Positions 3,100 to 54,768 of a stretch of 54,768 bases of DNA are shown here, piece after piece (the first letter of the stretch is position 1; each line of letters opens with the position of its first letter). The notes under the pieces were generated by a model. It was not told where the DNA came from, made no database searches, and worked only from the letters and a program-made list of their open reading frames with translations. The translations under genes and the position numbers were made by a program. Source of the DNA: Prorocentrum cordatum (lineage: Eukaryota); the NCBI GenBank assembly GCA_963575745.1, contig CAUYUJ010000213.1, forward strand, positions 62,001 to 116,768, read 5' to 3'.

Positions 3100-3183
3100 G
3101 GCCAGAGGCCGAGGCCGACGCCGAGGCCCAGGCCGACGACGAGGCCGATCGTGAGCAGCGGCGGGCGCTGGCGGCACCGCCAG

Positions 3184-13638: not shown

Positions 13639-13689
13639 GTCATCGACAAGGGTGACGGAGATGGCATCGACTTGGACATGGACGTGTTG
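13639..13689 (+). CDS. Exon of host membrane-protein gene (VIDKGDGDGIDLDMDVL)
   Basis: CAG|G acceptor, G|GT donor, phase 0; 3' boundary uncertain. Confidence 0.55.
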
Positions 13690-33338: not shown

Positions 33339-35691
33339 ATGGCTGGTACCTGGCAGTGTGCGTGTGGGCGCCATGTATCAGAGCGGCACTGGACGTGCCG
33401 AAGTTGCAACGGGCACTACAACCAGAGAAGGCGACGCCCCGCATCGCGAGGGCGACCACCACAGCAGCAAGCAGCAAGTTCTGCCATTCCGAGGCGGGCT
33501 TCCCAGCCCGACCCCTTGGCGAAGAAGCTCATAACCAAGACGCTACCTCTCCCCAAGAGCGAGGCAGAAGCGCACAAGGTTTACGAGGTCTACGGCAAGC
33601 CTCCGACCGACCCAGCGGCGCAACGCCAGTACAAAGACGAGATCAAGAGCCGCACTTACGACGTAGCCAACCTCATTTGTGCGGCCAGGCGGGCAAACAA
33701 GCCCTGCGACGAGGAGCTAACCGAAGTTGCAGCGCTCAAGTTCCTGATGGGACTCACCGAGAAGCGCAAGGACCATATCCAGGCCCTCAAGGACAAGAAG
33801 GCCACTTACAAGGAGACACTTGGCAATATTCGGGAAAGCATCAAAGAGTTCAAACAGCAAGAAAAACAGGTAGAGGCGGAGATCGCCAAGTCCGACGTCT
33901 GCCTAGCCGAACTCGAGGATGCCCCAGACACGGAGGACGACGAGCCCGACGACGCTGCCCAGGACCACCTGACAGCGGACGGCCCAACCTCGCACAACGT
34001 GGCACCACCGCCACCCCCAGCAGCGCCTGGCACCCAAATGGCACAGATGCAGGCACAGCTTGCCGCGCATCAAAGCATGATCAGCCAGCTGTTGGGACTT
34101 GTCCAGCCAGCCGCGGGGGCTTGCATCCAGGGCGTCCCTGGAGTGCCCCCGCCCGTTGCGGGCGCGGTCCCTCCACCGCCCCCCAGCACATCTGATCCAG
34201 CATATGCAGACCATGGCGCCTGGCACCTTTCCCCCCCAGCAAGTGTTCAGCCAGCCCCAGCAAACCCAGCAGGCGCAGCAGGGCTCGCCGGTGAGGTCCA
34301 AGTCGGCGACAGGCCAAGCCTACATGGCGGCGAAAGGGAAAGGCAAGGACGGCAGTGCCGCGGGGTTTACCCCAGAGGGGGCGGTAGCCCCCATGGCAGT
34401 AGACCAGACGGGGGCCGCGCCTGCAGCGACGGGCCTTGCAGCGCCGTCCCCGATCGCGGCAGCGGCGCCACCGGCGCCACCGGCTACAGACACCAAGGCC
34501 CCACCAGCAGCGCCACTACAGATGGCGCCAGCCGCAGCCCAGCCGCCAGCAGCCCCGCTTGCAGCTGCCCCGCAACAGGCAGCCCAGCAGCCACCAGCCG
34601 CTCCACAGCAGGCAGCGATGGCAGCACAGCGGCAGCAGGCGGCCCAAGCTGCGCACCGGCAGCAGCAGGCGGTACCAGCGGCAGCCAGGTCGGCCGCGGC
34701 CGCGACGCCCGCACCCGAGGCGGCGAGGGCCCAGGCTCCAGCCGGGGGCCAGCCCCCAGCCCAGGGACCGGGGCAGCCGCCAGCCCTACTCCCTGGATGG
34801 CCAGGCCCCCGCCAAGCCCAGCGCGAGCTGACGCACGCCACAGCGGCAGCAGAGGCCGCCGGGATGGACCATGCGACGCCACACAACATGGCCCCAGCGA
34901 TGGCCACGCTGGACGAGTACATGAGATACCTGCCAGAGATGGGGATCTGCACGGACCCAGTGAAGATCAGGGAGCTGCATGCCCAATTGGAGGCAGCAAG
35001 GCGGACGGGACCGAGCCAGGGGGCGATCACTGTGCAGTCGTCCCCGACCCAGGCGATCGCACCGACCCCGCATGCAGACTCGCAATCAGCCCTAAGCCCA
35101 CAGCTGCAGGGGTTGGACCGAGTTGTGCAGGCCGCCACGGCCGCATTTTTCCAGAGGCAGCGCGAGCTCCAGGAGCAGGCGGAGGCAGCCAGAAGACCAT
35201 GCCCTACCTCTCCGCCCAGAGCCCCCCCGCACCACAGCTCGCCTACCGAGCAGCCCGTGCCAACAGCAGTGCCGAGTCCCATCTTGCCACCAGGGCAGGC
35301 AGCCCAAGGGCAGCCACCAGCGCTACCATCTCCCACGGAGATCACAGTCCCCAGCCAGCTGGGCTCACCGTCGGAACCTACGCTGGTACGCAGCCCAGCC
35401 TTTGCCACGGCAGCGGGGTGCTCACCCACGGCGCCCTTCCTCCCGGAAGCCCACGCGCCGGGATTCCTTTCCGCTCCGACTCAGCTAGCATCGCAGACCC
35501 AACCAGAGACCCAGGTTGCAGCAGATGCGCCCCCAGGACCAACAACGCCCGATCGCCAGCAGCCAGCGGCCCTCAGCCCCACATCGCCAGCCGACCCAGC
35601 GTACGGCCAGAACGCTCACGACTGGGGGCCGCTGGGGCAGCCACCAAGGAAGTCGGCGTGCGCCCCAGGCACCATGAAGGACGACATCTGA
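33339..35691 (+). pseudogene. Retroelement ORF1/gag-like gene: N-terminal RanBP2-like zinc finger, coiled coil, Q/A/P-rich tail; one frameshift near 34185
   Basis: MAGTWQCACGRHVSERHWTCRSCNGH, then a K/E-rich helix. Protein-like sequence switches to the 34099-35691 frame at a C-run. Intronless; the region ends at the transposon TIR. Confidence 0.55.
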
Positions 35692-35833
35692 CCTTCCGCC
35701 CATCAGTCTCGTGGGGGCGCACCTTCTTCTGCTCGTACGCCCAGCCGGCATACGACGATGAAGAAGGATATCAACACCTACTCCATCATCAGACTGAGCA
35801 GAGTGAGCCACCTGCCGCGATTTTTGAGGGGTT

Positions 35834-35886
35834 CCCTGAGGGTCTTTGGGCTTAGATTTTTGAGCCCCACGTTTTGGGCTTATCTT
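35834..35886 (+). repeat. Left terminal inverted repeat
   Basis: Exact reverse complement of 45016-45068; TGGGCTTA motif occurs twice within it and once just inside. Confidence 0.95.
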
Positions 35887-36154
35887 GTGTTGGGCTTAAA
35901 TTTGAAATATACGCCCAAAACAGCACTTCGCGAACGGGCGACAGTCAACGGAACATATATGTTCCGTTGCGACATCCGTCCACATATGGACGGATATCTC
36001 AATCTGAGGTCGTTGCCCACGCGATATCGCGGGGGCAACGACCGCGCATGAAATTGCCGCGCATGAAATTGCCGCGCGCGAGCGGGGCAATTGGCAGTGG
36101 GCGGATGCGAAATCGTAAATGAAAAATAAAGAATGTAAAGAAAAATAAAAAAAA

Positions 36155-36231
<77 letters not shown>

Positions 36232-36237
36232 AAAAAA

Positions 36238-36284
<47 letters not shown>

Positions 36285-36300
36285 AAGAAGTAAATAAAAC

Positions 36301-36331
<31 letters not shown>

Positions 36332-37009
36332 AAGAAAAACATGAAATATAAACGCGCGAAATTGCGGGGCAAATTGGCAGTGGGCGGATGCGAAATCGTA
36401 AATGTGAAACACACGCGCCGAAATTGTTGAGATCTTTTTGGGGGTATACCGAACTTGTTCGAGTTTCTGGGTTGCTGCAGCCTGAACCAAAATGGTTCGA
36501 GTCCATTGCGCAACGTGGGGTCGCGCGAATCGCGGCGCTAGGTAACGCCAGCAAGAGTATCACGTAGTGCGTAGTTCTACTTCGGGACACTTGCGCAAGG
36601 CGGAACAAATGCGCAACAGAGCCTACCGTAGTCATCCGCGGGCTCGTAAGCTTGGCGAGCGAGCGACACAGACACACCACAGCACCACACAGACGCAACA
36701 CCAGGAGGAGAGAGAGGAGGAGCACCATCATAGTGGGCAAACAATTGAACGACCCGCAGCCCGAGCTTTGGCGGGCACAAGTCGCGGGAAAATAACCGTG
36801 CCGTTTTGGGGCGCGGAAGGAAAACGGCACGGTTTTTTTGTTTGGTTTTTCCACGCGGAATGGCCCTCCAGGCCCCCCTGGGCGAGGCCCCGCGGACCGT
36901 GGGAAAACGGCTGGCAAGACCGAATCAGAAGAGGAAAAGAAGAAGGGAGGAAGAGGGCGGGCGCAGAAAAGGCTGGAACCGTGGCGGTTGCAGACCGCGC
37001 GGCCTTCCT

Positions 37010-37295
37010 GATGGTTGTAGTGTGTTGGTGGCAATGCTTGTGGTAGTGGTAGTGACAGTTGTGATGGTTGTAGTGGTGGTGCTCGTTCTTGTAGTGCAGT
37101 GGTAGTGATAGTGACAGTTGTGATGGTTGTAGTGTGTTGGTGGCAATGCTTGTGGTAGTGGTAGTGACAGTTGTGATGGTTGTAGTGTGTTGGTGGCAAT
37201 GCTTGTGGTAGTGGTAGTGACAGTTGTGACGTTTGTAGTGGTGGTGCTCGTACTTGTAGTGTAGTGGTAGTTGTAATGTGTTGTAGTGTGTTGGT
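37010..37295. repeat. ~54-bp GTAGTG-rich tandem repeat inside the transposon
   Basis: GTAGTGTGTTGGTGGCAATGCTTGTGGTAGTGGTAGTGACAGTTGTGA x3 plus variants. Confidence 0.85.
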
Positions 37296-37880
37296 AGATG
37301 CACTCGAATTGTTCACGCTTCGCGAATCCCCACCAGCCCATCCTAAAACAGCCACTTTAGCAAAGAGTACCGACTGTCGGGATTTGTTTGTTCAATGATG
37401 CCCAGAGGAGTTGCTTTGATTCGATCAGGGAAGTGTGGGAGCATACAGAGAAACGAAGGACAGGGGATGCCGCCATATCCCAAGAGGGGAGGATGGAGGA
37501 GGAATCGGAGGAGGAGGTGGGGGAGGGGAGGAGGGAGGAGGAAGAGGGGGGGGGCGGACGAGGAGGGGAGGACGAGCAGAAGGGCCAGAGGCCTCTTGGA
37601 TGCATCGCGGAGTCTCTTGGGATGTCTTTGGGGAGCCTCTTGGAGGCCTTTTGGGGCGTCTTGGGGGCCTCTTGGCGGCCCCAGGGGCTTCTAGGAGCGT
37701 CTTGGGTGCCTTGGGAGAGCCTCTTCGGGCCTCTTGGGAGCTTTTTGGAGGCCGTTTGGGGCGTCTCGACAGCGGGCCTGCTCGGAAATCCCATCATGGG
37801 GGTCAGCACGAACACCTGGACCACGAGGACCCCCGTCCGCACACGGGAGATCGTGATGATGATGATGATCGTGATGATCG

Positions 37881-37927
<47 letters not shown>

Positions 37928-37964
37928 GTGGTGGTGATGAAGATGAGCATGCATGATTTCCTTT

Positions 37965-38247
37965 TTATTGCTCTAGCATTCGTTTGCGTTTGCGTGAAGA
38001 TGCGCACTTCGACCACGTTTGGAGCACGCGTCGGGCCCAGACCAAGCGGTGAGCCCGCTGGGCCACTGGCACGAGCTCTCCATTCAAGGATTCGTCCTCC
38101 CAACACGCGTAGCGCCCAGGCCCGCCGTGCCACAGCAAACGAGCACCCAGCTCCAGAAACATATGGTGTTTGAACTTGGGGTCGATGCCAATACGGGGCA
38201 GGCACCGCACGTGAGCCTTGGCATGGTCCATGAACGCCTGGTGATCC

Positions 38248-38280
<33 letters not shown>

Positions 38281-40179
38281 GCCTCCTCCTCCTCCTCCTC
38301 CTCTTCCTCGTCCTCCTCCTCCTCTTCCTCCACCTCCCCCTCCTCCTCCCCCTCCCCCGTATCGCCACCCGTCGTCGCCGCCGGCCTCGGCGTCGCCAGC
38401 ATCCACCACGGGGCAATCACCCATCTTCTTGATGAGGCGCAGCACCTCTCTGAGAGAAACACCTGCAACGTTCAAATCAAGGAACAACGTGCGATCTAAG
38501 AAACTCTGTTTTGTTTGCACAAGGTCGACAACAAACTTTGTGAACGCAACGGTTTCGGCTCCATGCAAACCTATCTGGTGGTGGTACGACGAGCCAATCA
38601 TAGAAGTCGTTAGATTTTGGACCCGTGTATGGTCCTTGCGGCCAGCAGCAACTTCTTTTGCGTACCACCTGAACAATTCCGCACGCAAACTCTTGACCGA
38701 CGCATCGAGCATCACTGATTCTGGTGCGTTGGACACTTGGAACGCATTGGCACTAATGAGGGCGTGAGCAGCACGAGAACAGAAGTATTTGCAGACACCG
38801 AGCGCTACAGTGTGCAGGGTATCCACACCCAGCACATGGGCAGGCACCACGCCCAGACAGACAGAAAACAGCGGGTTCCTATGTCGGGCTGCGGTTTCTT
38901 GCGAACGCCTCCAAAACGTTGCAACGAATGGCCTTGGCCTTGAGAAAAACGAAGACACAAACATCATGCTTGGAGTGGGTTCGAGCCTGTCACCGATTTG
39001 CAAATTCACTCCACCCACGGCCACGTCAGCGACCAACGCCCAACCTCTAGACTTGTCTTTCCGCCTGTCTGGGCGCAACGCGGCTCTAAGCAGAGGGAAT
39101 GTCTCGTCCGTCACGCCAACCGTAATCTCGCAGCGACTGCAGGCGTCAGAATATTGTTGCCAAGTCTTGGCGACATCATTGCCTAAAGCACTGAAGTGGC
39201 GAATGCCTGGAAGCGATGCAGTCGGCAGCGTGCAAAGGGGGCACGGATGTTCAGATGAGCTGCAGCCTGGTAACCCCATGGTCGTTGCATACTCTGCAAT
39301 GTCACACTTGATCAAGATAAGCGCCACGATGAAACCGAGCGGGGTCCCAGCCAGACCAGCTCTATCTGCATCGTCGTCCCAATTACTGCCGTCGTGCCGT
39401 CGATCGGGGTATCTGTTATCAGCGCAAGCCTGGAAAGACCAGCTGAGAAGCGTCATCAGGGGAAGCACCGTGCACCAGCCCAGGCAGCCACACGCGCACA
39501 TTTCAGACTTTCTCAACACAGCCACCAAAATTCGTTTGCCGCTGTGGACTAGATAGGTCCACACGCCCACGAGACCGTCGTGGCGAGCAAAGGGCACTCC
39601 GTCCACGAAGAGCGCAGCAGGCAATACAACAACTCCAGCAGGGGCGCCCTGCACGACAGGGTGATCGTAAAAAGAACGAGGGAGCTTGCCCTGTTCACGA
39701 TCGGCCGCGGCGCGGCGTAACAAGCTGGGGTCGCCCCGAACCTCGTCGACGAAAGCTTCATGAGGCAGAACTGCAGGAAGTCGCAACTCGACGGAAGAAG
39801 CATCTGCACGTAATTGACCAGACGCTGTAAATGTGTACATCGAATCATTACATATATCTTTATTGACCACGCAGTCGAAATGCTTGGAATACGCACCGCT
39901 GCTTTTGTTCGGCCCGAAAGCCAACGACCGTATCTCGCCAAGAGCGCCCGACTTCGAGGCCCAGAATGCGATGATGCAGGCTGTTTTCGCCGAGATCGTG
40001 CCGCTATGTTTCAGGGCGACAATGTAATCAAAGAAACACTCCTGAGCTATGTCAGGTTGAACGTCATCGTAGTCGAAGGCGACGTCTGAGTCTGACCCAG
40101 CGCCGTCCTCGTCAGCATACCTGCGAGCCAACCACGGCGCATCGTCCTCCCAAGGATATTTCGAAGCAGAGCTGGCCAT
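37965..40179 (-). CDS. DDE transposase (CMC/Plavaka-like), ~688 aa, 2 exons: 40179-38386 and 38237-37965
   Basis: Exon 1 motifs: LFVDGVPF (D), IKCDIAEY (D), HPCPLC (CxxC), GVDTLH..LGV. Exon 2 motifs: PKFKHH..HGGP..WEDESLNG (E). Joined in phase 0 by the GAG|GC...CAG|GC intron at 38238-38385. Family assignment is by motif recognition, not a database search. Confidence 0.8.
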
Positions 40180-40207
40180 GCACTGGACTGGCTTGTGTCA
40201 ACGCTGG

Positions 40208-40229
40208 CTTGAGCTAAACTGGCTACGGG
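40208..40229 (-). promoter_or_regulatory. Genomic spliced-leader relic upstream of the transposase
   Basis: Minus strand CCCGTAGCCAGTTTAGCTCAAG; 19/21 to the SL core; 28 nt before ATG 40179. Confidence 0.8.
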
Positions 40230-40471
40230 ATCCCCAGGCTCGGTATGCAGAAGATATGCAGCCAACGTTTGTCAGGCCCCCTGGAGTGGCCAGAGGGGTG
40301 GAGGGGTGGCGATGACGGGGGCAAAGGGGCTCAGGCACGCCCACGCGGCCCCCCCTCGGGCGAGGGGCCACGACGCGAACTTCGGGAGGGGTAGTCTTGC
40401 AAAGCCATACCACATCACAGCAAATATGCGGACCGACGTCAGCTTTCACGCTCGAGATCTGTAGTTCCACG

Positions 40472-40636
40472 AAGTACTAAAATGTACTAAAATGTTCTAG
40501 TACATTCGAAATGTACTAATTAGTACTTGTTGTTCTAAACCTTGATTTCTAGTGTAAATATCAATGTAAACGCAAGTACTAAAAATGTACTAACATGTAC
40601 TAGTACTAAAATGTTCTAAAATGTACTAATTAGAAC
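40472..40636. repeat. AT-rich GTACTAAAAT iterated motif between transposon genes
   Basis: About a dozen GTACTA/GTTCTA copies in both orientations. Confidence 0.8.
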
Positions 40637-41101
40637 TCTCGTGAAATTGGCTCTGGACCAGCGCCCAGGCCAAGAAATCGTTGAACTAGGGCACGTCTGG
40701 TCTGAGCTCCAGTGGGTTCGAGGCGCAGCGGATGGCTGAGGGCACGGGCGAAACCGTTTCACGATCAAATGCCATGGAAATCCTTTGCAGCGCCTGCTCA
40801 CGAGAACGCATTCCGACAGAATGGCGCAGGCCGCTGGCAACACTTGCGTCGACCCCGATCGACGCCCACGGGGGCGGGAGTAGGAGGCGGAGGAAGGTGC
40901 ATGGCAGGAGACTTCCTGCTCGCGTTCCTCCTCCTCCTCCTCCTCCTCCTCCTCCTCCTCCTTCTCCTCCTCCTCCTCCTCCTCCTCCTCCTCCTCCTCC
41001 TCCTCCTCACCCTACTCCTACTCCTCCTCCTCCTCCCCCTACTCCTACTAGTAGTAGGAGGAGGAGGAGGAGGAGGAGGAGAGCTCGCTAGAACGCACGG
41101 T

Positions 41102-42355
41102 TCACTGCGAGGCGCTCCCGTCGTCGTCGTTGTCGATGCGTTGGCGGTGCATGTTCTTCAGCTCGTCAGCGCGCTTCAACAGGGACGCAACCTTCTTCTC
41201 GAACTCATCCAACTTCTTGATCTCCCTCCGCACCACCGTCTCGTCGAGGCCCTTGCGAACCTGCTTCGGGAAATCCTTGCCGTGCATCGCCAGGGTCGCC
41301 CAGAACGAAATCTCCTTCATCGCCTCGACCCTGGCACGCGCCTTTTTCAAAGGCTTCAGTACCTCCTCGTTGTCGGCCCACTTCCATTTAGGGCCCTTGC
41401 CGATGAGGCTCAAGACGTCGGCACACGAAGAGCAGGCCGAGTCCATGTCGATCTTCGCCTTCACGCACTGCTGCAACTTCTTGTCGAGCTCCTTATTGGC
41501 CGCCTTCTTGTCCTCGTCGTCGTCGCAGTGCTCCTCGGGGCCTGGGTCAATAGCTGAGGCCTTGCGCTTCTGCGAGCTGGGCTTCGCGGACGCCTTCGCC
41601 TTCGTCTTCGCCTTCGGGGTTGCACTGGTCGGGGCATCATCACCGCGGCTGCCGCCGCCACTTGGACACAGGCTGATATTGCCAACCGTGGAGTTGTCCA
41701 AATCGATGTCGACATCATCCATTATCTTCCAGCAGTCCTGGACGATGTCGGAAAAGCCAGTCTCCAAGTGCAAGAACTCGCATCGCTTGCTGAAGGCATT
41801 CCACTGGACAAAAGGAACTCCACTGCAAGTAATGTTCTTCCTCCAGAGGGCGATGCACGTACGACAGATGTTCGAGGCAGCCTTGACCGCGCATGGATCG
41901 GAGCCTTCGTCCCTGACAATCACGCTGAACGGCTTGAACTTGCCCTTCTTGAAATTCTCGAAGCTCGTTGTCTGCGTCCTCTGGCGCTTCGCGACCCTCT
42001 TGTCGAGCTCCCTCTTGGCCCAATTCACTTTGAACTCGTCGCGCATGTCCTTTGACTTCTTGGTCTTCTCCCAGTTCTCCTTCAGCTCCTGGTCGCAGCT
42101 CTTCTGGTACATGAACGCCTTCCCGAGTTTGGAGTGGACGTCGAGCGAGCCTGTCTGGATGACGCGCTTGAGGTCCTCCTCCTCAGCCGTTGACGGCGGG
42201 CCTCTGGTCTTGCTGTCCGCCAGCGAGGCCTGCAGCGCCCTGCCAAGCCCGTCCTCGACACCTGCAGCGGTCTGATTCGCCACTGCGCCATCAAGCGCCG
42301 CCAGAGCCTCAGGAGGCACGAGGCTCTCAAGCGTGAGCTCAGGTGGCGAGGACAT
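41102..42355 (-). CDS. Transposon accessory protein, 417 aa, unknown function (basic, C-terminal coiled coil)
   Basis: Intact, complex-composition ORF with GC3-biased codons, inside the TIRs; near-perfect SL copy 45 nt upstream of the ATG. Confidence 0.8.
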   Translation of the reverse strand: MSSPPELTLESLVPPEALAALDGAVANQTAAGVEDGLGRALQASLADSKTRGPPSTAEEEDLKRVIQTGSLDVHSKLGKAFMYQKSCDQELKENWEKTKKSKDMRDEFKVNWAKRELDKRVAKRQRTQTTSFENFKKGKFKPFSVIVRDEGSDPCAVKAASNICRTCIALWRKNITCSGVPFVQWNAFSKRCEFLHLETGFSDIVQDCWKIMDDVDIDLDNSTVGNISLCPSGGGSRGDDAPTSATPKAKTKAKASAKPSSQKRKASAIDPGPEEHCDDDEDKKAANKELDKKLQQCVKAKIDMDSACSSCADVLSLIGKGPKWKWADNEEVLKPLKKARARVEAMKEISFWATLAMHGKDFPKQVRKGLDETVVRREIKKLDEFEKKVASLLKRADELKNMHRQRIDNDDDGSASQ

Positions 42356-42400
42356 GTCTGGGTGAGGAAACGTATCCCAGAAGCTGGCCGACCTCTAGAA

Positions 42401-42422
42401 CGTGAGCCAAAATGGCTACGGA
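42401..42422 (-). promoter_or_regulatory. Genomic dinoflagellate spliced-leader copy (21/22 match)
   Basis: Minus strand reads TCCGTAGCCATTTTGGCTCACG vs DinoSL DCCGTAGCCATTTTGGCTCAAG. Confidence 0.9.
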
Positions 42423-42908
42423 GGAGGATGGTGATGGGGAGATGGAGGAGGAGGATTGTTCCGAATCCACTGGTGAGCTCCAGAGGGCCCGCGAGGAGGA
42501 TTGTTCCGAATCCACTGGTGAGCTCCAGAGGGCCCGCGAGGAGGGGGAGAGCCCCAGGGGAGGAGCGGCTGAAGGTTTCAGCGTCGTTTACGGAGACGGT
42601 CCCCAGGAACATCGAGCCTTGAAAATGTGCTTCTGGACGCCCCCGAAGAAGCCTGGGACTCCAGGCAATTTTCACTCACTACCCGTTTGCTGTCCCGCTG
42701 AACTGAACGAGGAGGAGGAGGAGGAAGAGGAGGAGGAGGGGGGGCGGGGGAAGAGGAGGGGACAGCAGCAGCAGGAATGGAAGCATGACCAGCAGCAGCA
42801 TCTATAACATGTTTTACTCGGCACGTCGGAATGCCATTGCCCTGCAGCAGAGGCTCAAGACGTCGGATCAAGCACTTGTCTCTTTTTTTAGGGCCCCCAG
42901 GCTCGCGA

Positions 42909-44414
42909 CTAAAACGTCTGCGACTCTTCAAAGTCGCACTCGTCCAACTGCAAGGAGCCATCGGCAATGGCCTCGAAGGCCTCGTGAAGGCCCGAGGCCG
43001 GCACGGTGAAGGAGGACGCAGCTGTAGATGTACTCGTAGATGTACTCGTCGGAGCAGCCAGCATCTTCTTGTTAGGCTTGGCGGGGGTGCCATCCACGAC
43101 GGTGCACTTAGTGACGCCAGTCTTCGCCGACATCTTCTGAGTTTTCGTTGCTGGCGCATCAGTCGGGATATCGGTATGTGTTCGCTTACCTGTGGTGTAG
43201 CCGTACTTCGCTATCAACTCGTCCCTCTCGGCGGTCGCTCCATCAGGCGAGATGGTGCCGTCCGCGATCTTGCAACTGATCAGTTTGGAGGTGGCCAAGG
43301 CATTCTGTCGCGATGCTACCATCGCGCGTTTGGTGGGCGTCTTGATGTCCTTCTCGCCCTTGTGCTCAGGCCCCCACTCGTCGTCGATGATGCAGTTCTC
43401 GATGATGAGCTGGCTCAGCTGCGAGCGCTTCTGCTCCTTGCGGGGTTGATCTGCGTTCTCCGCCAAAAAGAGTATCAGCATCTCCTGCTTTCTCGACGTT
43501 GCCTGCTTCCAGGTCTTGTGGATCTCGATGGCCTTGGTCTCGTCATCCTTGCATTTCATGACTCTCAAGGGGCCCCTGTGGCTCTCCCACTCGACGGTCA
43601 TCATCTCGACGTACTCCTTGACTGTGACCTCCTGGACCTCCCGATGCAGCTCCTCGCCGACCGCGGTCTTGCCCCAGCGAGCCTTGACGGCGTCATTATC
43701 CTTCATCTGCGGCTCGATGTAAAGATCCATCGTGTAGTCAATCGCCTTCGGGTCGCTAGAGAGAGCCCTCCAGACAGCCCTCTTCTCGTCGCAGAAGCCG
43801 TAGTGGGTAGCCACTGTTCCAGCCCGCTGGCCAGCGGCCTGGTCGACAAGGGACTTCTCGCCATCGTCCTCGCTTCCGCCGTTGCCTGGGAAACCGAGCT
43901 CGTCTTCGCTGTAGTACTGCGAGCTCTCATCGCCACCTGCCTCCTCCTCCTCCTCATCTGCTGGATCCTCTTCTTCTTCGTCCTCGCCTGCGTCGGCCCC
44001 GTCCTCTGCTGGATCGTCGTCGCCGTCGGCGTGTGTCATTTTCTCCACCCATCTCGGCAGCGTCGGCCTGCGCAACACCTTGGCGTAGTGCTGGCAGACC
44101 AGCATCATGCGCTTGGCGTGCACATGTGTCCACTGTTTCACGTGCTTCTTGTTCAGCGGCTTCTCCCACGTATCTCCGTTGTCGGCAATCTCCTTCAGCG
44201 CCGCTTGGAAATCGGTGATCTTGAAGGCGAGGGGATCGTAGAGGACCTTGAGTTTCTGCAGCCACTGCCTGGTTTTGATGATCTTCTTGACATCCATGAC
44301 CTTGGCGTCCTCTGGGTAGTCCAACCACGTCGCGCACGTCACGCTGTCCTGGATCGCAGCAACAATGGCGGCGACGCCACCTGCGAAAGCCTTCCCTCGA
44401 GGCTTCTTGCCCAT
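42909..44414 (-). CDS. Transposon accessory protein, ~501 aa (MGKKPRGK...), unknown function, central acidic tract
   Basis: Long complex ORF inside the TIRs. Start placed at ATG 44414, downstream of a degenerate SL at 44473-44496, rather than at the ORF-track start of 44693. Confidence 0.75.
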   Translation of the reverse strand: MGKKPRGKAFAGGVAAIVAAIQDSVTCATWLDYPEDAKVMDVKKIIKTRQWLQKLKVLYDPLAFKITDFQAALKEIADNGDTWEKPLNKKHVKQWTHVHAKRMMLVCQHYAKVLRRPTLPRWVEKMTHADGDDDPAEDGADAGEDEEEEDPADEEEEEAGGDESSQYYSEDELGFPGNGGSEDDGEKSLVDQAAGQRAGTVATHYGFCDEKRAVWRALSSDPKAIDYTMDLYIEPQMKDNDAVKARWGKTAVGEELHREVQEVTVKEYVEMMTVEWESHRGPLRVMKCKDDETKAIEIHKTWKQATSRKQEMLILFLAENADQPRKEQKRSQLSQLIIENCIIDDEWGPEHKGEKDIKTPTKRAMVASRQNALATSKLISCKIADGTISPDGATAERDELIAKYGYTTGKRTHTDIPTDAPATKTQKMSAKTGVTKCTVVDGTPAKPNKKMLAAPTSTSTSTSTAASSFTVPASGLHEAFEAIADGSLQLDECDFEESQTF

Positions 44415-44472
44415 GAATCTGGGTGCGTCGCCAACGAAAGCCGAGAGGTACCGAAACCGCGTGGCGCAATCG

Positions 44473-44496
44473 CTTCGAGCCAAAATACGGCGACGG
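44473..44496 (-). promoter_or_regulatory. Degenerate spliced-leader relic upstream of ORF 42909-44414
   Basis: Minus strand CCGTCGCCGTATTTTGGCTCGAAG; SL with one substitution and small insertions; 58 nt before the ATG. Confidence 0.6.
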
Positions 44497-45015
44497 CGAG
44501 GACAGTGGGAAACTGACCAAGGTGAAGTAATGTTGGACATGAGGACATGAGGACATGGCGCGTTCTTTGTCTCTGGCGCGTTGCACATTAATGTGCAACG
44601 CGCCAGAGACAAAGAACGCGCAGGAGCTCCTGGCTGGTCGGGGGTAATACCCCGCTTGCCCGCATATTGCGGGCACCGAACGCCGAAGGACATTTTCCAG
44701 AATCCGTATCCTGAGCCCTTTCAAAGCTCTATTCTGTAGTACTCCATATGCTTCTTTCCTGGCTACAGCTATCCTGAGCAGCCCCCCCCCAACACACACC
44801 ACCACCACCCCACTTTGAACGCTATGTTAAAGCATACGTCCTTTTCAACAGTGACGATTCGTTGTCGACCTTGCAAAATGCGCGTCTACGTCCTTTCAGC
44901 AGTGACGTTTCGTTGTCGACCTTGCAAAATGCGCAAGTAATATGCCATCCATGGAAACACTACCTTTGAACTACACGCAAACAATGATGTCTTAAATTAT
45001 AAGCCCACCCAAAAA

Positions 45016-45068
45016 AAGATAAGCCCAAAACGTGGGGCTCAAAAATCTAAGCCCAAAGACCCTCAGGG
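45016..45068 (-). repeat. Right terminal inverted repeat
   Basis: Exact reverse complement of 35834-35886; TAAGCCCA x3 including the copy at ~45000. Confidence 0.95.
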
Positions 45069-48000
45069 TCTGCGACTGTTCCGACTGGTTGGGCCCGCCG
45101 CAGGAATCGTCTATGGCTTCGCGAGGCGCGGCGGCTACTGGGGCACGGAAGCCTGGCGGGGACTTGCGGGTTGGCGCGGGCCGCGCGGTTGGCCGCCAGG
45201 TAAAGGCCGAGTCGCCTCCAGCAGCTGGGGCGGAGAGGAACGCTGCAATGTGGTAAGCGGGGGCAGGCCCCTCCCGTTGGCGCTCGCCTTCAGACCCGCG
45301 CCCACCCTCGTCCACGAGCGCGCCCCCATCTGTCGCAGCGTGGCCTTCGCCATGTGCGGGAGTGCTGCGGGTCGCACCCGGCCCGGGCACTTTGTCAGAC
45401 ACCGTTTCTTTCGCCAAGACGAGAGTCGCCTTCCTCGGCGTGGCCCGGCCTTCGAGAGGGAGTGGCTGCGGTTCGCTGCCCGTTCGGGCGGATTCGCTGA
45501 CAGGGGAACGAGGGCGAATGGGCGCGAAGGGACTTCTCTGGACAAGCTGGCGGATGGCCTCGATGTCCTGCCTCTGCAAGGCATGTTCGTGATTCCCCAG
45601 CGAGGGGCCTTCGAAAGTGCCAGGGGCGGCGGCGGGCGGAGTCGCAGCGGGGCGTTGATGGGTCTCGCCGCCAACCAGATGCATCGACAGCCCCAGGCTT
45701 TGCAAATAATGGGCTCCGCATCGGCCGTCGGCCACGGGGATGGCCTCGGAGGCGTTGGCTGGAGGGTCTGCGCCGACCGCAAACGCGCGCCCGTCTGTGG
45801 CCCGCGCGCACCTCCAGGAGTCAAGCGAAACCTCCAATCGTGAGCAACCAGGGCCGCTGTCAGTCACACTTTCGCGCACCCCCACGACGCGAGAACTGTG
45901 GCAACTGACGGCCGCGTTTGGATTTACGACCTCTTGGCTGTCTGTTGCGCGCGGAATGTACCCGATTTCCGCAGTGCCGTCCGCAGCATTCCGAACTGCC
46001 GTCGCGATGCTGTTGCCAGGAGAGCGCGCCATTTCGGGCGCATATTCGGCGTCCGCCAAGACTCTGCTCCCAGGGCGCTGGTAGGAGCGAGGGGGCGCAA
46101 TTTCGGCCGCATCTTCCGCCTCAACAACGAGACCGCCCCCGGGGCGCTGATAGGAGTGAGGGGTTGTAGGAACGCCTGCGCGGTTGTCTCCTGGAGGGGA
46201 AGGCACCGGCGCGCTGTGGCTGACGACCGCCTGTTCGGTCTGTAGCACTCCCAGGGGGCTACTGCAGCTGAAGGCCGCACGTTCCAGTGTGAACTCCTGA
46301 CTCTCTATGCTGCGAAGAGGCTCTAGATATCCTCCACCATCCGCTCGGCGAAGCGTCGTGGACCTCCTCTCGGGAGGGGGCTGGTCTCCGAGCGCAGGCG
46401 CACCCTCTGCGGCATCCCCGACTGTCGCCACGATACTGCTGCCGGGGGGGCACGCAATTTCGGCCGCATCTTCCGCCTCAACAACGAGACCGCCCCCGGG
46501 ACGCTGATAGGAGTGAGGGGTTGTAGGAGCGCCTGCTCGGTTGTCTCCTGGAGGGGAAGGCGCCGGCGCGCCGTGGCTGACGACCGCCTGTTCGGTCTGT
46601 AGCTCTCCCTGGGGGCTGCTGCAGCTGAAGGCCGCGCGTTCCAGCGTGAACTCCTGACTCTCTTTGCTGCGAGGAGGCTCGAGATATCCTCCATCATCCG
46701 CTCGGGGAGGCGTCGTGGACCTCAATTCGGGAGGAGGCCGGTCTCCGAGCGCCCGCGCGCCCGCTGCGGCATTCCCGACTATCGCCACGATGCTGTTGCC
46801 AAGGGGGGGCGCAATTTCGGCCACATCTCCCGCCTCAACAACGAGACCGCCCCCGGGACGCTGATAGGATTGAGGGGCTGTAGGAGCGCCTGCGCGTTTG
46901 TCTCCTGGGCGGGAAGGCGCCGGCGCGCTGTGGCTGACGACCGCCTGCTCGGTCTGTAGCTCTCCCAGGGGACTGCTGCAGCTGAAGGCCGCACGTTCCA
47001 GCGTGAACTCCTGACTCTCCATGCTGCGAGGAGGCTCGAGATATCCTCCATCATCCGCTCGGGGAGGCGTCGTGGACCTCCTTTCGGGGGCAGGGCGGTC
47101 TCCGAGCGCAGGCGCGCCCTCTGCGGCATTCCCGACTGTCGCCGCGATACTGTTGCCAGGGGGGCGCGCAATTCGGCCTCATCTTCCGCCTCATCAACGA
47201 GACCGCCCCCGGGACGCTGATGGGAATGAGGGGCTGTAGGAACGCCTGCTTGGTCATTTCTTGGAGGGGAAGGCACCGGCGCGCTGTGGCTGACGACCGC
47301 CTGTTCGGGCCGTAGCACTCCCAGGGGACTGCTGCAAAGGGGATGAGGAGGGTGGAAGGGGGTAGTCAATGAGGGGGGGGACCAAGCAGGGGGGACATGG
47401 GGAGGGAGGGTAGAGGTGGAGGGAAAGAGGGGAAATAGGGGTGAAGGGAGTGAGAGGCGTGAGCAAACAATGCGATGACAGGGAAGGGTAGGGCAAAAGG
47501 GAGGAGATGAGGAGGGAGGGTGGGGGAGGGGGGAGTGAGAATTAGTGAGGGGAAGGGGGCGGGGAAGGGGGGGCGTGGAGGAGGGGAGGGAAAGAGCGGA
47601 GAGAGGCTGAAGGCCGCACGTTCCAGTGTGAACTCCTGGCCCTCGATGTTGCGAGGAGGCTCGAGATATCCTCCACCGTCCGCTCGGGGAGGCGCCGTGG
47701 ACCTCTTCTCGGGAAGAGGCTGGTCTCCGACCGCGGGCGCCCCCTCAGCAGCACCCCCACCTGTCGCCGCGATACTGTTGCCAAGGGGGGGCGCAATTTC
47801 GGCCGCATCTTCCGCCTCACAACGAGACCGCCCCCGGGACGCTGATAGGAGTGAGGGGCTGTGGGAACGCCTGCTTGGTCTCCTGGACGGGAAGGCACCG
47901 GCGCGCTGTGGCTGACGACCGCCTGTTCGGTTTGTAGCTCTCCCAGGGGGCTACTGCAGCTGAAGGCCGCACGTTCCAGCGTGAACTCCTGACTCTCTTT

Positions 48001-51000
48001 GCTGCGAGGAGGCTCTAGATATCCTCCATCATCCGCTCGGGGAGGCGTCGTGGACCTCCTTTCGGGAGCAGGCCGGTCTCCGAGCGCGGGCGCGCCCTCT
48101 GCGGCATTCCCGACTGTCGCCACGATTACGCTGCCAGAGGGGGGCGCAATTTCGGCCGCATCTTCCGCCTCAACAACGAGGCCGCCCCCGGGGCGCTGAT
48201 AGGAGTGAGGGGTTGTAGGGGCGCCCCTGCCTTTGGGTTTGTGATCTGACCGTCTTCTCGCAACCATCGCGCCTGTGGCACACGACCCACCTGCTTCGTC
48301 TGTAGAGCTCTCCAAGTGTACTGCTGCAAGCCGGGGGGGGGGGGGGGGTCGGGTGAAGTGGGGGGGGGGGGGGCGCAAAGGGAGTGGGTACGGAGGGGAA
48401 GAGGGCTGAAGGCGCACGTTCCAGACCCAAAAGAGAAAGAAGAGAGACTAAAACAAGGATTCCACCTAGGCACCAAGAGGCAACAACAGAGCCAAGGCCA
48501 GCACAACAAACCCCCCCAAAAAAAAAAAGAGTACCACCAGAGTTCAGGAAGGGCCACCACCCGAAGAAAAAAGAGCTAGAGGAGTGCAAGGCGTGAACTC
48601 CTGATTCTCTATGCTGCGAGGAGGCTCGAGAAATCCTCCATCATCCGCTCGGGGAAGCGTCGTAGACCTCAATTCGGGAGGAGGCCGGTCTCCGAGCGCA
48701 CGCGCGCCCTCTGCGGCACCCCCACCTGTCGCCACGACGCTGTTGCCGGGGGGGGGGGCGCAATTTCGGCCACATCTTCCGCCTCAACAACAAGACCGCC
48801 CCCGGGACGCTGTAGGAACGCCTGCTTGGTCATTTCTTGGAGAGGAAGGCGCCGGCGCGCTGTGGCTGACGACCGCCTGTTCGGTCCGCGGCACTCCCAG
48901 GGGACTACTGCAGGCCGCACGTTCCAGCGTGAACTCCTGACTATCTATGCTGCGAGGAGGCTCGAGATACCCTCCATCCACCGCTCGGGAAGGCGTGGTG
49001 AACCTGATCTCGGGAGGAGGCCGGTCTCCGACCGCAGGCGCGCCCTCCGCGGAGCCACCGCCTGTCACCGTGACGCTGCTACTAGGAATGGGCGCGCTGT
49101 CGGGGGCATATTGGGCCTCCACCAAGACTCTGTGCCTGGGGCGCTGATAGGAATGAGGAGCTGTAGGAACGCCTGTCTGCCTGTCTCTGACAGAAGGAAG
49201 AACCGACCCGCTGCGGCTGACCACCGCGCGCTCTGTCTGTAACTCCCCCTGGCGACTGATGCAGCTAACGGCCGCTGGTTGGCGACTGTCTTCAGGCGAA
49301 ACGCCACCTCCAGATTTGCAGCAATCGTCAACCTCAGATTTACGATTGTCTTCAAGCGGGTCGGTTCTGCGTCCAGGGAGCGCGCTCGCGACGGCGTCCG
49401 CCGCGCGCCCAGCAGCCCGGGCCAGGGCCGCGACAGCCGTCCAGAGGGAGGCCTGCGCAGCCTTTCCGGCGGCAGCGGCGCAGGCACCAGCGTCGGCGGC
49501 GAAGGCGGCGCGGGGCGCGGGCCGCCGGACACGGACGGCGCCAACTCGCCCGAGGGCGTCGGCTGCGTCCGCGGCCCTGGTCGGTGCGCGCGCGTGGGCC
49601 GCCGCAGCCACGTCGGCCCCCCAGAAGGCGCTGGCGGCGGAGGCCGCGGCGGGGCAGCCATCGCCAGCGGCGCCAGCGGCGTTGGCGGCGCAAACGGCGG
49701 CGGACGCGCCCCAGGGAGAGGACGCCTCCGACGCGTTGGCAGCGCCAACCGCGCTGGCCGCGCGGGCGAGCCCAGGGGGGCGGCCGCCGGCCGCGGCAGC
49801 AGCGCCCAGACGGCGCTGATTCGCAGCACGCCCTTGTCGGCGCCGCCGCGCCGCCGCAGTCTCCATCGCCCGGGGCTGAGCGCCAAACGCGCATGGGGGG
49901 AGCGCGCCGTCTTGACTGCCAGGATTACCAGGGTTGCGACTGAAGGTCGCCCTTTCACTCTTCACCGCCAGGCATCTGCTTGGGGCCCCGCTACTTCCTC
50001 GGCTGAGGGCCGAATTGTTACTCGCACTGTCGCCAGGAAACACGGGATTAATCGGCGAATCCGAAGTGGGATTGATCGGCATGCTGGGGACTGGATCTGT
50101 CTGAGACGCTGGCTGCGCTGCACGGCAACGACCCAGGGGGCAGCTGAAGGCTGCACTTCCAATGGAAGAATCCTCCAGATAGTCGTCAGTCGCCCTGGTC
50201 ACCACGGCTGGAGCCGCCTCGAAATTCTGAGTTCCTGGTCCCCTGGGGCTGGTGCTGCTGCAGCTGCTTCGGCTGCTGTTGCTGCCGCTGCTGCCCTGCC
50301 GGTGCGTCTGCCCGCTGGGGGCGCGTTGGTGCTGCAGCGGCGCGGCCGCGGCGGCGCCAGCCGCGGCGGGCCCAAGCGCGGCAGCGCGGGCCACGGCGGC
50401 CGCGGCGCCGGTCGCGTGGCCCGCGGCCGCAGCGGCGGCCGCCTCCGCCGCGGCCGCGGCGAGCGGCGGCGGGGGCGGCCGCCGCGGCGCCTGGGCGGCC
50501 GCGGGCGGCGCGGCGGCACCTGGGCGCCGAGGCCCGCGGATCAGGGCGCCCAGCGGCGCCCGCGGCGCCGGCGACGCCGCGGAGCCATCGGCCTCGCCGT
50601 GTGGCGCGGACGCCAGCGAAGGGGGGGGGGGGGCGCCCCGGCGCCAGCGCGCCTGGCGGCGCCACAGGCGTCGGCGGCTGGACGCGAGCGGCCACAAGGC
50701 GGCGGCGTGGCGCGGCCGCGGAGCCGACGGCCGCCGCCGGCGCCAAGGGGCCGCAGCGGCGCCGCGGCGCCCGTCGGCGCAGAGGCGGCCGCGGCGGCGC
50801 ACCGCGCGGCCGTTGAGCGGCGCCGCCGCGGCGGCGGCCGCGGCGCAAGCGGTGGGGGGCAGCGCCAGCGTGCACCAGCCGCAGGAGAGGCTGGCGCCGC
50901 GGCGGGCCGCGCAGCCAGGCTGCCAGCAGTGGGCGGCAAGCCTCGCGCGGCCGCGTGCGTGGGCGCGCGGCCGCGCTGTCACAGGGCGCCGCGCGGCGGC

Positions 51001-51468: not shown

Positions 51469-52689
51469 AAATGGTGATGATGATGATGATGACACCGTTC
51501 TTCGGGGCCACATGACTCTTAGGCCTCGCAGGGCGCAGCGGGCTCGTGGGTCTTGTGGAACTCAGAGGGCTGTTCTGGTTTATCGGGATAGTGGGGCCCA
51601 GAAAGCGCATATGGCTCGCACGGCTCAAAAAGCTCGAAAGGGCTTGTAGAACTCGAAGGCATAGCGGGTCATGGAACCCGCAGGGCTCAACAGGTTGACG
51701 GAGCTTGTAAGGCTCATGGGGCTTGTAAGGCTCATAGGCCGCATTGGGCCCTGCAGGGCTTTGAAAACTTACGGGGTTGAGAAGATTCGTAGAGTTCGTC
51801 TTGTAGGGCTCGTGGGGCCCATGAGCCCGCGAAGCTGAAAAAAAACTAAGGTCTGGGGGGGGGGGGGGCTTCTAGGCTCCGGGGGGGTTGCGTGGTTCGC
51901 AGGGCACGTAGCGCTCATGAGGCTCAGAGGTGGCATAGGGCTCAGAGGGCGCACAAGCAAGGTAAGGCTCGCGGGGCTCATGCGGCTCTCCCGGCCCCCG
52001 CGATTCATTGGAGCCATAAGGCTCATATGGCGAATTGGGTTATGCGTCTATACATTTATGTTGATGTACACACATTGCATTCAAGACGTGATTCGCAAAC
52101 GTGATCATCAGAAAAACTCTGGCCCGCGAGTGCCGACACTTCGCCACACATACTCTTTATGACTTGAGCCTCCCAAACCTCCTTCCCAACGTCTTCGCCC
52201 CCCGGCGATCATCGACCCACTGGCGAGCAACAGGACGTGGAGGAGGAGGAGGGGGAGGAGGAGGACACATGGCCTCACAACGCGTGGCGTCAGCCACGAA
52301 TACTGGACCCGAAAGGCTTTTCGTCCCGACTTGTCTCTCAATGCGGCCCCAGGCCCGTATAGCAGGGAAGAACCAGAAGGGCCCCTCCTCCTCTGGCACC
52401 TCTCTCCCTCACGCTGAAGCACGCGGCCGCCCGTCGATCCACAGATCTTCCACCGCGCGCGGGCCCTGGGGGCCAAACGGTCGCGGGTTGGTGGCGCGAG
52501 AGGCCAGCGGATGTGCGCATTCTATGTTGCATTCGCTTCGTCGCTGCACTGATAATGCATTCGTAGGTTGTCGGATTGCCAGGAAGTGATATAGCTATGT
52601 AAGTGTATGAAAATTTGTACATGGCCCCAAATATGTAATATGTGTATATACATATACATATACATATACGATTGGAGATCTTTCCAGTA

Positions 52690-53940: not shown

Positions 53941-54768
53941 AGGTGCGGTCGTGGCGGTGTCCAGCATTTGAACATGTTATATATGGTTTATTAGTTTTTT
54001 CCCCCCCCAATATTCTCCCGCCGAGGCCGGGGGAATAATCAATCGTAAGTGGTGAGGTAATACCGCGCCGTTTTATGAGTTTTTCTATTCCCTGGGAGTT
54101 TACCTGTTTACTTTCAAATGTTCGAGATAGCCTTTAGGAAGCTTCAATATCCAAATCTTATTCCCCAGATTCCTATTCAGAATCGCACGTCCAATGCCAT
54201 CCATAATCATACGCAGAGCATTTCTCTGAATCCTTCACAAGGTCCCATTGTGTTTTGAAGATAATCTCAATAGAGCTCCCCGATAGCCCTCATTAGGCCA
54301 CGCAAAGACGAGGAGGAGGAGGAGGAAGAGGACGGGGAGGAGGACGGGGAGGAGCAGGCGTTCGCAACCCACGTCTCGGGCTGCACGCTGGCGAGTGGCA
54401 TCGAGGGGGAAGGCGAAAAGAAAGCGTAGCAGGAGGAAGAGGAAGAGAGGGAGGCCCGTTTCGCGTAAGACAATCTCGGAAGCCTGGGCCCGATATGACA
54501 ATGAGCAGTCTCGCCGATGACGTCAACATCATCATTCAGGGTACCAACATGTGTGTTCTCAAATACTTATGGCCCATTTCGCGTGATACATTCTCAACAC
54601 TTTGGGGTCGGATATGTTTTGGTTTGATGCGATTTGGCCGCGGTCGCTTGAGACATCCTCGCAACTTTGAGCTCGCATTTTTTCCGCCAGTACTTAGGAC
54701 AACGTTGCTTTAGTCAGCAGGCCGCCGCAGCTTGTTCATTGAATGTTTGCCCCTCGGTTCCGCCAGTG

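Follow-up and report, generated by a model that had tools for sequence, protein, structure and literature searches.

Relics of the dinoflagellate spliced leader precede each gene of a three-gene DNA transposon in Prorocentrum cordatum

Introduction

Why should each gene of a DNA transposon be headed, in the genome itself, by a copy of the spliced leader that dinoflagellates use (DinoSL)? The question is raised by a window of 54.8 kb from Prorocentrum cordatum (the whole stretch of DNA analysed here, 54,768 nt; contig CAUYUJ010000213.1, positions 62,001-116,768 of the forward strand), in which an earlier note had pointed to DinoSL-like sequences before three ORFs. DinoSL relics of recycled mRNAs were reportedly described by Slamovits and Keeling in 2008, as cited by Song et al. 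2017. Song et al. 2017 (PMC5585692) report such relics upstream of 22-23% of the gene models in two Symbiodiniaceae, and for Prorocentrum minimum the count of retrogenes in a transcriptome survey is 477 (PMC12014239). As the former source describes known relics, a poly(A) tail is not a required hallmark and tandem relics reflect repeated rounds of recycling (PMC5585692). A literature search returned no description of DinoSL relics inside a multi-gene DNA transposon family.

Results

For detection of leader-like sequences, an edit-distance scan with the 21-nt DinoSL core was applied to both strands of the whole window. Exactly three sites lay within 4 edits, where 0.12 sites per window would be expected by chance and a maximum of 1 was obtained across 100 Markov shuffles. 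All three proved exact as the earlier note had quoted them, on the minus strand and at 28, 45, and 58 nt before their ATGs. Relic A (40208-40229, CCCGTAGCCAGTTTAGCTCAAG) has 2 mismatches of 21 and is the one 28 nt from the ATG of ORF A (40179); relic B (42401-42422, TCCGTAGCCATTTTGGCTCACG) has 1 mismatch of 21 and lies 45 nt from the ATG of ORF B (42355); and the degenerate relic C (44473-44496, CCGTCGCCGTATTTTGGCTCGAAG) lies 58 nt from the ATG of ORF C (44414). Relic C differs from the core by 4 edits (1 substitution and 3 inserted bases) and has lost the internal AG; weak when taken alone, it is credible given its strand and position. Relics A and B were recovered by a pattern search as well, which gave 0 matches in 100 shuffles. 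A fourth SL-like site (36481-36501, minus strand), at 5 edits, fell within chance (2.25 expected) and was rejected.

The window relics comprise the whole 22-nt leader; its first base is present too, as T, C and G in the window and mostly as T in the relatives described below. After the leader come CC, TT and CG, with a GT donor at 0 of 3 relics, and an Rfam search of 35000-46000 reported no SL RNA match (Rfam may hold no dinoflagellate SL RNA model). For these two reasons, the relics are not regarded as SL RNA genes.

The relics lie within a 9.2-kb DNA transposon (35834-45068), in which three co-oriented ORFs are enclosed by 61-nt terminal inverted repeats (TIRs) of the kind that marks class II DNA transposons. 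The left TIR (35834..35894, outer end CCCTGAGGGTC) is 97% complementary to the right TIR (45008..45068), or 96.7% by BLASTN, and BLASTN found no further copy elsewhere in the window. In DNA run X1, one contig followed 44646-45070 with zero differences and then continued with 28 letters differing from the window. The interior of the element had a depth of ~10-12 in this run, with one variant contig at ~99%, and its flanks were repeats. No target-site duplication of 2-9 bp was common to the flanks GAGGGGTT and TCTGCGAC. The gene order on the minus strand is C, B, A, and 486 and 872 nt separate each upstream stop codon from the relic that follows it. Both the element and its relatives have arrays of subterminal repeats; a cluster of AGTACT-type short repeats (40440..40640) lies ~200-400 nt upstream of relic A, and in two related loci, L005 and L008, GTACTAGTACTAG runs lie immediately upstream of their own relics.

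ORF A (38272..40179, minus strand, 635 aa) belongs to a family of 3739 representative clusters at E values up to 0.001, the invariant residues of which include D193, C228, C230, C232, D293, C313, and C316. Using its structure model (pLDDT 79.5), Foldseek gave RAG1 as the best match (E 1.2e-3), and VIA-align placed RAG1 (Z 10.1), BbRAGL (Z 8.3), and HzTransib (Z 6.9) above the best-scoring unrelated chain (Z 5.4). Residues 113-595 of ORF A align with 533-963 of RAG1 at Z ~10 and an rmsd of 5 Å over 321 aligned positions (PDB 9jpu, 6xny, 6b40, and 6pqx, all RAG1/Transib recombinases). None of the 22 family members examined had a Pfam match, nor did a PDB sequence search find a chain, RAG1 included, that matches ORF A at the sequence level. 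The modelled fold, together with the invariant D193 and D293, identifies ORF A as a predicted DDE transposase whose catalytic core is RNase H-like. There is a C..C pair 20 residues past the second invariant Asp and an H..H..DE motif at the C terminus, an arrangement that may correspond to the residue spacing of RAG1 itself. The enzyme may work like Transib or RAG1, yet it is not classed here as a member, the likeness being one of fold only. The window TIR starts with CCCTGAGGG rather than a CAC heptamer, the 5-bp duplication was not seen at its flanks, and the element has three genes instead of one.

The C-terminal part of the transposase was found in another reading frame (37965..38243, minus strand), where the C termini of homologues match 38243-37971 and the H..H..DE motif of the family is located. 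The frame change falls within G-runs of a GGA-type repeat at ~38345-38360 and could mean that the copy is broken, that the assembly is one base off, or that a short intron is present. Because the third acidic residue sits in this out-of-frame part, the window copy may be inactive.

ORF B (41102..42355, minus strand, 417 aa) is a conserved and mostly helical accessory gene with one homologue, 53% identical. Matches to ORF B by tblastn were located upstream of the transposase in loci L007 (E 1e-11) and L004 (E 1e-9), and the alignment of four sequences has 32 invariant columns; its structure model is poor (pLDDT 62, pTM 0.34). ORF C (42909..44414, minus strand, 501 aa), the first gene of the array, matches an 'unnamed protein product [Prorocentrum cordatum]' in two pieces (100% and 98%) that omit the acidic stretch 43923-44078, and its N terminus is weakly like the first ORF of L004 (E 0.03). 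Pfam gave no family above cut-off for ORF C and none known in ORF B. ORFs B and C are single and uninterrupted, with only ORF A broken in frame within the G-rich repeat; an intron-free coding region does not discriminate between origins, however, because relatives without relics are also single ORFs.

Recurrence of the relics was then examined in 80 metagenome loci (241 kb) encoding relatives of ORF A at 30-49% identity. At up to 3 mismatches, 16 sites were found on the gene strand versus 0 on the other; at up to 5 edits, the numbers were 36 and 7, respectively. Of the loci, 66 (several of them near-identical) extended 150 nt or more upstream of the inferred ATG. A relic (up to 5 edits, up to 300 nt upstream of the transposase ATG, gene strand) was present in 20 of these 66 (30%), and the reverse complement of the same stretch held a site in none. 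Relic quality ranges from 0 to 5 edits, the relics are scattered over a quick tree of the family, and full and truncated relics stand in tandem in L042, L012, L045, and L005/L008. Units that are bounded by inverted repeats and contain relics were found in the window, L009, and L042; relatives are also flanked by inverted or subterminal repeats.

The array layout recurs in two long loci. L004 has a relic at 574-594, a C-like ORF, a second relic at 3100-3120, a B-like ORF, and the transposase, and L007 has a relic at 302-322 followed by a B-like ORF and the transposase. Counted by array, all three genes of the window element have a relic before them, as do two of three in L004 and one of two in L007. 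The order B then A is common to all three arrays, the transposases of L004 and L007 being ~40% identical.

In five alignments, including those of genes whose proteins are 22-49% identical, the relic forms the sole conserved island in otherwise unalignable upstream DNA. Relic A is the sole conserved block shared with its nearest relatives, L005 and L008, and G14 is changed to A in all of them; relic B is the sole conserved block shared with the stretches preceding the B-like genes in L004 and L007. In L045 and L048, T17 is changed to C in both relics. In a set of 32 distinct relics, conservation of the TTTTGG core does not exceed that of other positions, and two of the three most poorly conserved among the 21 positions are the G in the internal AG (65%) and the last G (75%).

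Discussion

In our view, the three sequences are probably DinoSL relics of trans-spliced mRNAs that were reverse-transcribed and recopied into the genome. The genes of the element would be transcribed, every mRNA gaining the 22-nt leader; a host reverse transcriptase would convert these into cDNA, the 5' part of which would re-enter in or beside the resident gene; and the relic would thereafter move with the element as DNA. Fresh transcripts would be trans-spliced again, giving the tandem relics of some relatives. Tandem full and truncated relics are a classic sign of repeated mRNA recycling, and the varied relic quality and scatter on the tree are as would be expected from recurring events of different ages. 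Re-entry would presumably be local, 5'-sided, and free of a poly(A) tail, and present-day expression of the genes is likewise presumed. If the relics acted as promoters or acceptors at all, this would be a secondary gain.

Apart from an A7 run 19 nt past the stop of ORF C, no poly(A) remnant follows the window genes, and an A-run of at least 8 was found after the gene in 0 of 13 relatives checked; no direct repeats surround individual genes. Plain single-mRNA retroposition should scatter genes, and B-then-A order is nonetheless kept at ~40% identity. The retrocopy origin considered in the earlier note needs qualification: full-length relics in the usual place, strand bias, and tandems support it in kind, but a single assembly of the element from three retrocopied mRNAs fits poorly, because L004 and L007 have the same order at that divergence. 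The note had also held that equally good matches at random positions, or upstream of ordinary genes, would undo its reading. At random positions they are not common, whereas upstream of ordinary genes relics are reported at 22-23%, and the 30% at transposase loci is not clearly above this rate.

The explanation that survives next best, although we consider it unlikely, is that the SL-like cassettes are a selected expression module for each gene, which arose through a cDNA event all the same and was then maintained long-term by function. The module might be a TTTT(G) promoter-like motif, an Sm-site-like ATTTTGG, or a ready trans-splice acceptor, making the array expressible wherever it landed. 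In its favour are the relic as the only conserved island upstream of such diverged genes, the relics at several genes of one array, and the changes common to sister lineages (G14-to-A in the window and L005/L008, T17-to-C in L045 and L048). The lone conserved block would fit repeated fresh acquisition and would fit selection too. The derived changes hint at inheritance with constraint; neither is significant alone, and at one position per pair they could be coincidence. A promoter role has been proposed for the relics of host retrogenes (as presented in PMC5585692 and PMC6050394). Genome-encoded DinoSL in a Symbiodinium +ssRNA virus has been interpreted as mimicry (discussed in PMC9651163); this too is a parasitic element with the host leader in its own genome, although, as portrayed there, the virus has an RNA genome and a single leader at the 5' end, whereas the window contains a DNA transposon in which each gene has its own relic.

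Several results speak against selection. A recognisable relic is present at only 20 of 66 transposase genes, near the reported host-gene rate; the TTTTGG core is not better kept; the internal AG is gone in relic C; and tandem relics show that fresh acquisition occurs. The low conservation of the AG guanines argues mildly against a putative splice-acceptor role, and the idea of cis leaders or trans-splice acceptors put forward in the earlier note gains nothing from the way the relics are conserved. More doubtful still is the wider proposition that a widespread dinoflagellate transposon family keeps a hard-coded host SL before each gene as a selected portable module. If it were true, the element would bring, as promoter-like TTTTGG, Sm-site, or splice acceptor, its own fit to host trans-splicing at any insertion site.

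We regard it as improbable that the ORFs are host retrogenes, either flanked by chance by a short repeat in two inverted copies or taken up by a non-autonomous element. The missing target-site duplication, the low interior depth of ~10-12 between repeat flanks, and the lack of known domains in ORFs B and C would suit such an origin, but ORF A is a transposase-like DDE protein of a very large and diverse family, in L004 and L007 a B-like gene lies upstream of the transposase and shares its strand, and relatives are likewise bounded by inverted or subterminal repeats. That the matches are due to chance or are SL RNA genes has a negligible probability: the third site does need 4 edits, but three sites against 0.12 expected, on one strand and directly before ATGs, refute it, as do the absent GT donors and the lack of a reported Rfam match.

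With mRNA recycling as the preferred explanation, the relics are ordinary DinoSL relics, and what is new is their setting inside a multi-gene DNA transposon family. Like those described for dinoflagellate retrogenes, they are genomic copies of the full or partial 22-nt leader, placed on the coding strand some tens of nucleotides before the ATG and at times in tandem; the relics described there sit at host gene models, whereas here relics stand before each gene of a TIR-bounded transposon and recur in its family (compare PMC5585692). Dinoflagellate mRNA recycling would thus extend to DNA-transposon genes, and relics between inverted repeats can be carried and spread through transposition, which bears on relic counts as a dating tool for retroposition bursts. 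The annotation pipeline described for P. cordatum drops TE-containing genes from its training set (PMC10666404), which may help to explain the poor coverage of TE genes in surveys that rely on annotation. The promoter role proposed for relics could be tested naturally in this gene family, since its diverged copies are many and include some that have a relic and some that lack one.

A DDE transposase family, unnamed and very large, also emerges from the locus: in dinoflagellates it combines a RAG1/Transib-like fold with a conserved three-gene layout, and it is of interest to transposon classification. CACTA/En-Spm and Plavaka/KDZ elements are multi-gene TIR elements with short subterminal repeat arrays and a D..C..C after the second catalytic Asp, all features shared by the window element; unlike CACTA/En-Spm, it has no CACTA terminus, and the 3-bp duplication was not seen. 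Neither the window ORFs nor the 22 family members matched Transposase_21 or Plavaka in Pfam; the nearest named ESM Atlas cluster is Plavaka (0.87), a lead only. The SLACS/CRE/CZAR retrotransposons of trypanosomatids are likewise tied to spliced-leader sequence, but they insert into SL RNA genes, whereas here the leader sequence lies within the element. A GGA-type microsatellite recurs throughout the element, and its complement makes up the pyrimidine run that the earlier note had pointed to upstream of relic B.

Spliced leader relics before the genes of the element

The element is a 9.2-kb unit bounded by a pair of 61-nt terminal inverted repeats (TIRs), at 35834-35894 on the left and 45008-45068 on the right, which are 97% complementary to each other. 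Within this unit, ORF C (42909-44414, 501 aa), ORF B (41102-42355, 417 aa) and ORF A (38272-40179, 635 aa) follow one another in that order on the minus strand. An earlier note had quoted a sequence resembling the spliced leader of dinoflagellates (DinoSL, 22 nt) before each of the three ATGs. All three were found in the window exactly as written, on the minus strand, with gaps of 28 nt for ORF A (site at 40208-40229), 45 nt for ORF B (42401-42422) and 58 nt for ORF C (44473-44496). The sites before ORFs B and A have one and two mismatches, respectively, to the 21-nt DinoSL core, a quality seen in none of 100 shuffles, and the site before ORF C carries one substitution and three inserted bases. 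The possibility that matches of this quality are equally common at random positions was not borne out; when both strands were scanned by exact edit distance, the whole window yielded three sites within 4 edits of the core, compared with 0.12 expected by chance. Taken by itself, the site before ORF C would not convince; it gains credibility from where it lies and from its strand. A GT donor directly after the leader was absent at all three sites, and an Rfam scan reported no SL RNA match, returning only sub-threshold miRNA-like matches on palindromes and repeats. As read from their sequence, the three sites belong to the established class of DinoSL relics and are not SL RNA genes.

Several other features were observed near these sites. 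A fourth SL-like site within the element (36481-36501, minus strand, reading GAACCATTTTGGTTC) lies downstream of ORF A and, at 5 edits, is within chance expectation; its G6-to-A and C16-to-T changes jointly keep the leader's small AGCCA/TGGCT hairpin, and the same pair is present in the relic of one metagenome locus, L034. About 60-150 nt upstream of the relic of ORF C, at 44554-44625, there is a near-perfect palindrome of ~64 nt (GCGCGTTCTTTGTCTCTGGCGCGTTGCACATTAATGTGCAACGCGCCAGAGACAAAGAACGCGC) to which miRNA precursors match below threshold on each strand (for mir-5595, the match scores 53 bits and the gathering score is 100). Directly upstream of the relic of ORF B, a 48-nt unit (GGAGGATTGTTCCGAATCCACTGGTGAGCTCCAGAGGGCCCGCGA) occurs twice within 42440-42540, and the bin around this stretch had ~10x the depth of neighbouring bins in DNA sequencing run X1.

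Relics in related metagenome loci

Relatives were examined in 80 metagenome loci (241 kb) encoding ORF A homologues at 30-49% identity. Sites with up to 3 mismatches numbered 16 on the gene strand and 0 on the other strand; at up to 5 edits the counts were 36 and 7. In 66 loci, several of them near-identical, the inferred ATG is preceded by 150 nt or more. Of these, 20 had a site of up to 5 edits no more than 300 nt before that ATG, compared with 0/66 for the reverse complements of the same stretches; 20/66 is a lower bound, because the fuzzy-regex scan is slightly insensitive and missed the third site of the window. The relics lie within their contigs, often preceded by hundreds of bases, and are therefore genome-encoded rather than the 5' ends of mRNAs.

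In the 8.9-kb locus L004 the layout is like that of the window: the relic at 574-594 is followed by a C-like ORF that begins at 605, and the one at 3100-3120 by a B-like ORF that begins at 3224, with the transposase starting after these at about 6785. Locus L007 has a relic at 302-322 followed by a B-like ORF and the transposase, and in L009 and L042 inverted or subterminal repeat arrays flank the relic together with the gene. In L042, L012, L045 and L005/L008, a second, truncated relic comes after a full one, a pattern that the available literature credits to repeated rounds of recycling. It was also noted that L004 contains a 28-59-nt motif (..AAGATTCCACCTAGGGACCC..) in both orientations before and between its genes (217-275, 434-492, 1931-1974, 5741-5768 and 6520-6560), which the GGACCCC-type arrays of L042 and L009 resemble; these motifs and arrays may be transposase-binding subterminal repeats.

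Origin of the relics

In the available text of the two sources, 22-23% of the gene models of two Symbiodiniaceae have a relic no more than 500 bp upstream (Song et al. 2017, PMC5585692), and 477 retrogenes were counted in Prorocentrum minimum in a 2025 transcriptome survey (PMC12014239). The relic rate in the transposase family (30%) is in the same range as that of the Symbiodiniaceae gene models, so nothing suggests a transposon-specific mechanism. What is unusual is that, in a single TIR-bounded element, each of the three genes has a relic, an arrangement that recurs where the proteins are only 22-40% identical.

We prefer an account based on recycling, whereby mRNAs of the element would have been trans-spliced and reverse-transcribed, local copies of their 5' parts would then have been placed back in the resident genes, and the relics would thereafter have travelled along with the element. 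The graded quality of the relics (0 to 5 edits), their scattering over the family in a quick tree and the tandem relics all speak for this account. Against it stand the lack of convincing poly(A) remnants, the preserved gene order and the relic being the sole conserved island in otherwise unalignable upstream DNA. Because that DNA is unalignable, inheritance and re-acquisition are inseparable in two clades.

A conserved island is also what selection on a cis element would give, and it is conceivable, if rather unlikely, that the relics are kept in this way. Two sister pairs each share one derived change, G14-to-A for the window with L005/L008 and T17-to-C for L045 with L048; these changes point in the same direction, but are too few for significance. 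The leader's TTT(T/G) motif has been proposed to supply a promoter (PMC5585692, in the text available). Among 32 distinct relics, the TTTTGG core is no better kept than other positions. Across the same 32 relics, conservation over the 21 positions is lowest at the G of the internal AG (65%), and the final G shares the next lowest value (75%); this and the loss of the internal AG before ORF C speak mildly against an acceptor role. The pyrimidine run that the earlier note had remarked upon upstream of the relic of ORF B proved to be the complement of a GGA-type microsatellite found all over the element.

In the available text of the literature on the dinoflagellate spliced leader, relics, transposases and transposons, no description of leader relics in DNA transposons was found. 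Among parasitic elements that encode the leader, the nearest precedent in that text is a Symbiodinium RNA virus discussed in PMC9651163, which, like this element, carries the leader in its own genome. The finding is real and moderately interesting, and offers a good entry point for asking whether relics are functional.

The transposase and its accompanying genes

No Pfam family was above cut-off for ORF A or for any of the 22 members of its alignment, a PDB search by sequence profile gave nothing relevant, and ESM Atlas gave only unnamed clusters together with weak Plavaka and RAG1 leads. In an exhaustive search, the family comprised 3739 representative clusters at E ≤0.001, with 811 of these at 1e-30 or better, bringing into view a large unnamed transposase family. 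Residues D193, C228/C230/C232, D293 and C313/C316 are invariant in the alignment of 22 members. The AlphaFold model of ORF A (pLDDT 79.5, pTM 0.70) gave RAG1 as its best Foldseek match (E 1.2e-3), and VIA-align superposed RAG1 with Z 10.1 and an rmsd of 5.0 Å over 321 aligned residues, followed by an amphioxus RAG-like transposase (Z 8.3) and Helicoverpa Transib (Z 6.9), with the first unrelated chain at Z 5.4. From these structural matches, ORF A is predicted to be a DDE-type transposase with RAG1/Transib-like architecture. The likeness lies in the fold of the predicted model, and at the level of sequence ORF A is not a member of RAG1/Transib or of any other named family. The C-terminal part of the transposase, which holds the family's H..H..DE motif, follows a G-rich repeat in another reading frame (38243-37965, minus strand); because this part is out of frame, the copy may lack activity; alternatively, a one-base assembly error may lie at the frame break.

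ORFs B and C likewise had no Pfam family above cut-off. The best match for ORF C, Peptidase_A17 (E 0.025), was below cut-off and was taken as noise, and ESM Atlas gave no usable match for this ORF. The structure model of ORF B was poor (pLDDT 62, pTM 0.34) and unfit for structure search. Judged by its relatives, ORF B is a conserved accessory gene; in both L004 (E 1e-9) and L007 (E 1e-11), an alignable B-like gene precedes the transposase on the same strand. ORF C weakly resembles the first ORF of L004 at the N-terminus, and is matched in two pieces, at 100% and 98% identity, by an NCBI entry named 'unnamed protein product [Prorocentrum cordatum]'. The public gene model skips an in-frame acidic stretch (43923-44078) as if it were an intron, which is possibly an annotation artefact, since the stretch is open in the window.

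Termini, copy number and surroundings

The termini of the element (CCCTGAGGG) differ from those of Transib and CACTA and match neither. No target-site duplication was visible at its flanks, nor were further copies of the TIR or flanks found within the window. Just inside the right TIR, at 44836-44935, two tandem copies of a ~48-nt unit (ACGTCCTTT..GTCGACCTTGCAAAATGCGC) were read by eye and may be subterminal repeats. To the right of the element, long minus-strand ORFs (44992-48267) encode repeated protein units (ESQEFTLERAAFSCSSP..).

The window is GC-rich, at about 55-70% over most of its length, and its source is, or is very close to, Prorocentrum cordatum; at its right end (52001-54768) GC drops from about 0.65-0.80 to 0.27-0.45. 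Depth and variants were taken from X1, the only DNA run containing most of the stretch, in which the ORFs of the element interior had a low depth of about 10-12 and one variant contig was ~99% identical. Neither a second full copy nor a joint across the element was found in four DNA runs. Within the element, a satellite-like repeat of very high copy number, at 37202-37935, reached a summed depth of 7,000-14,000 in X1, where the ORFs had about 10-12; it was also the principal part matched in two metagenome runs. The flanks at 35000-35733 and 45069-46000 consist of repeated DNA at 4-15x the depth of the element interior in X1. A freshwater (X2) and a marine (X3) metagenome run contained short contigs that match the element with 0-5 differences, some of them covering the relics of ORFs B and C, so copies nearly identical to it occur beyond the source assembly.
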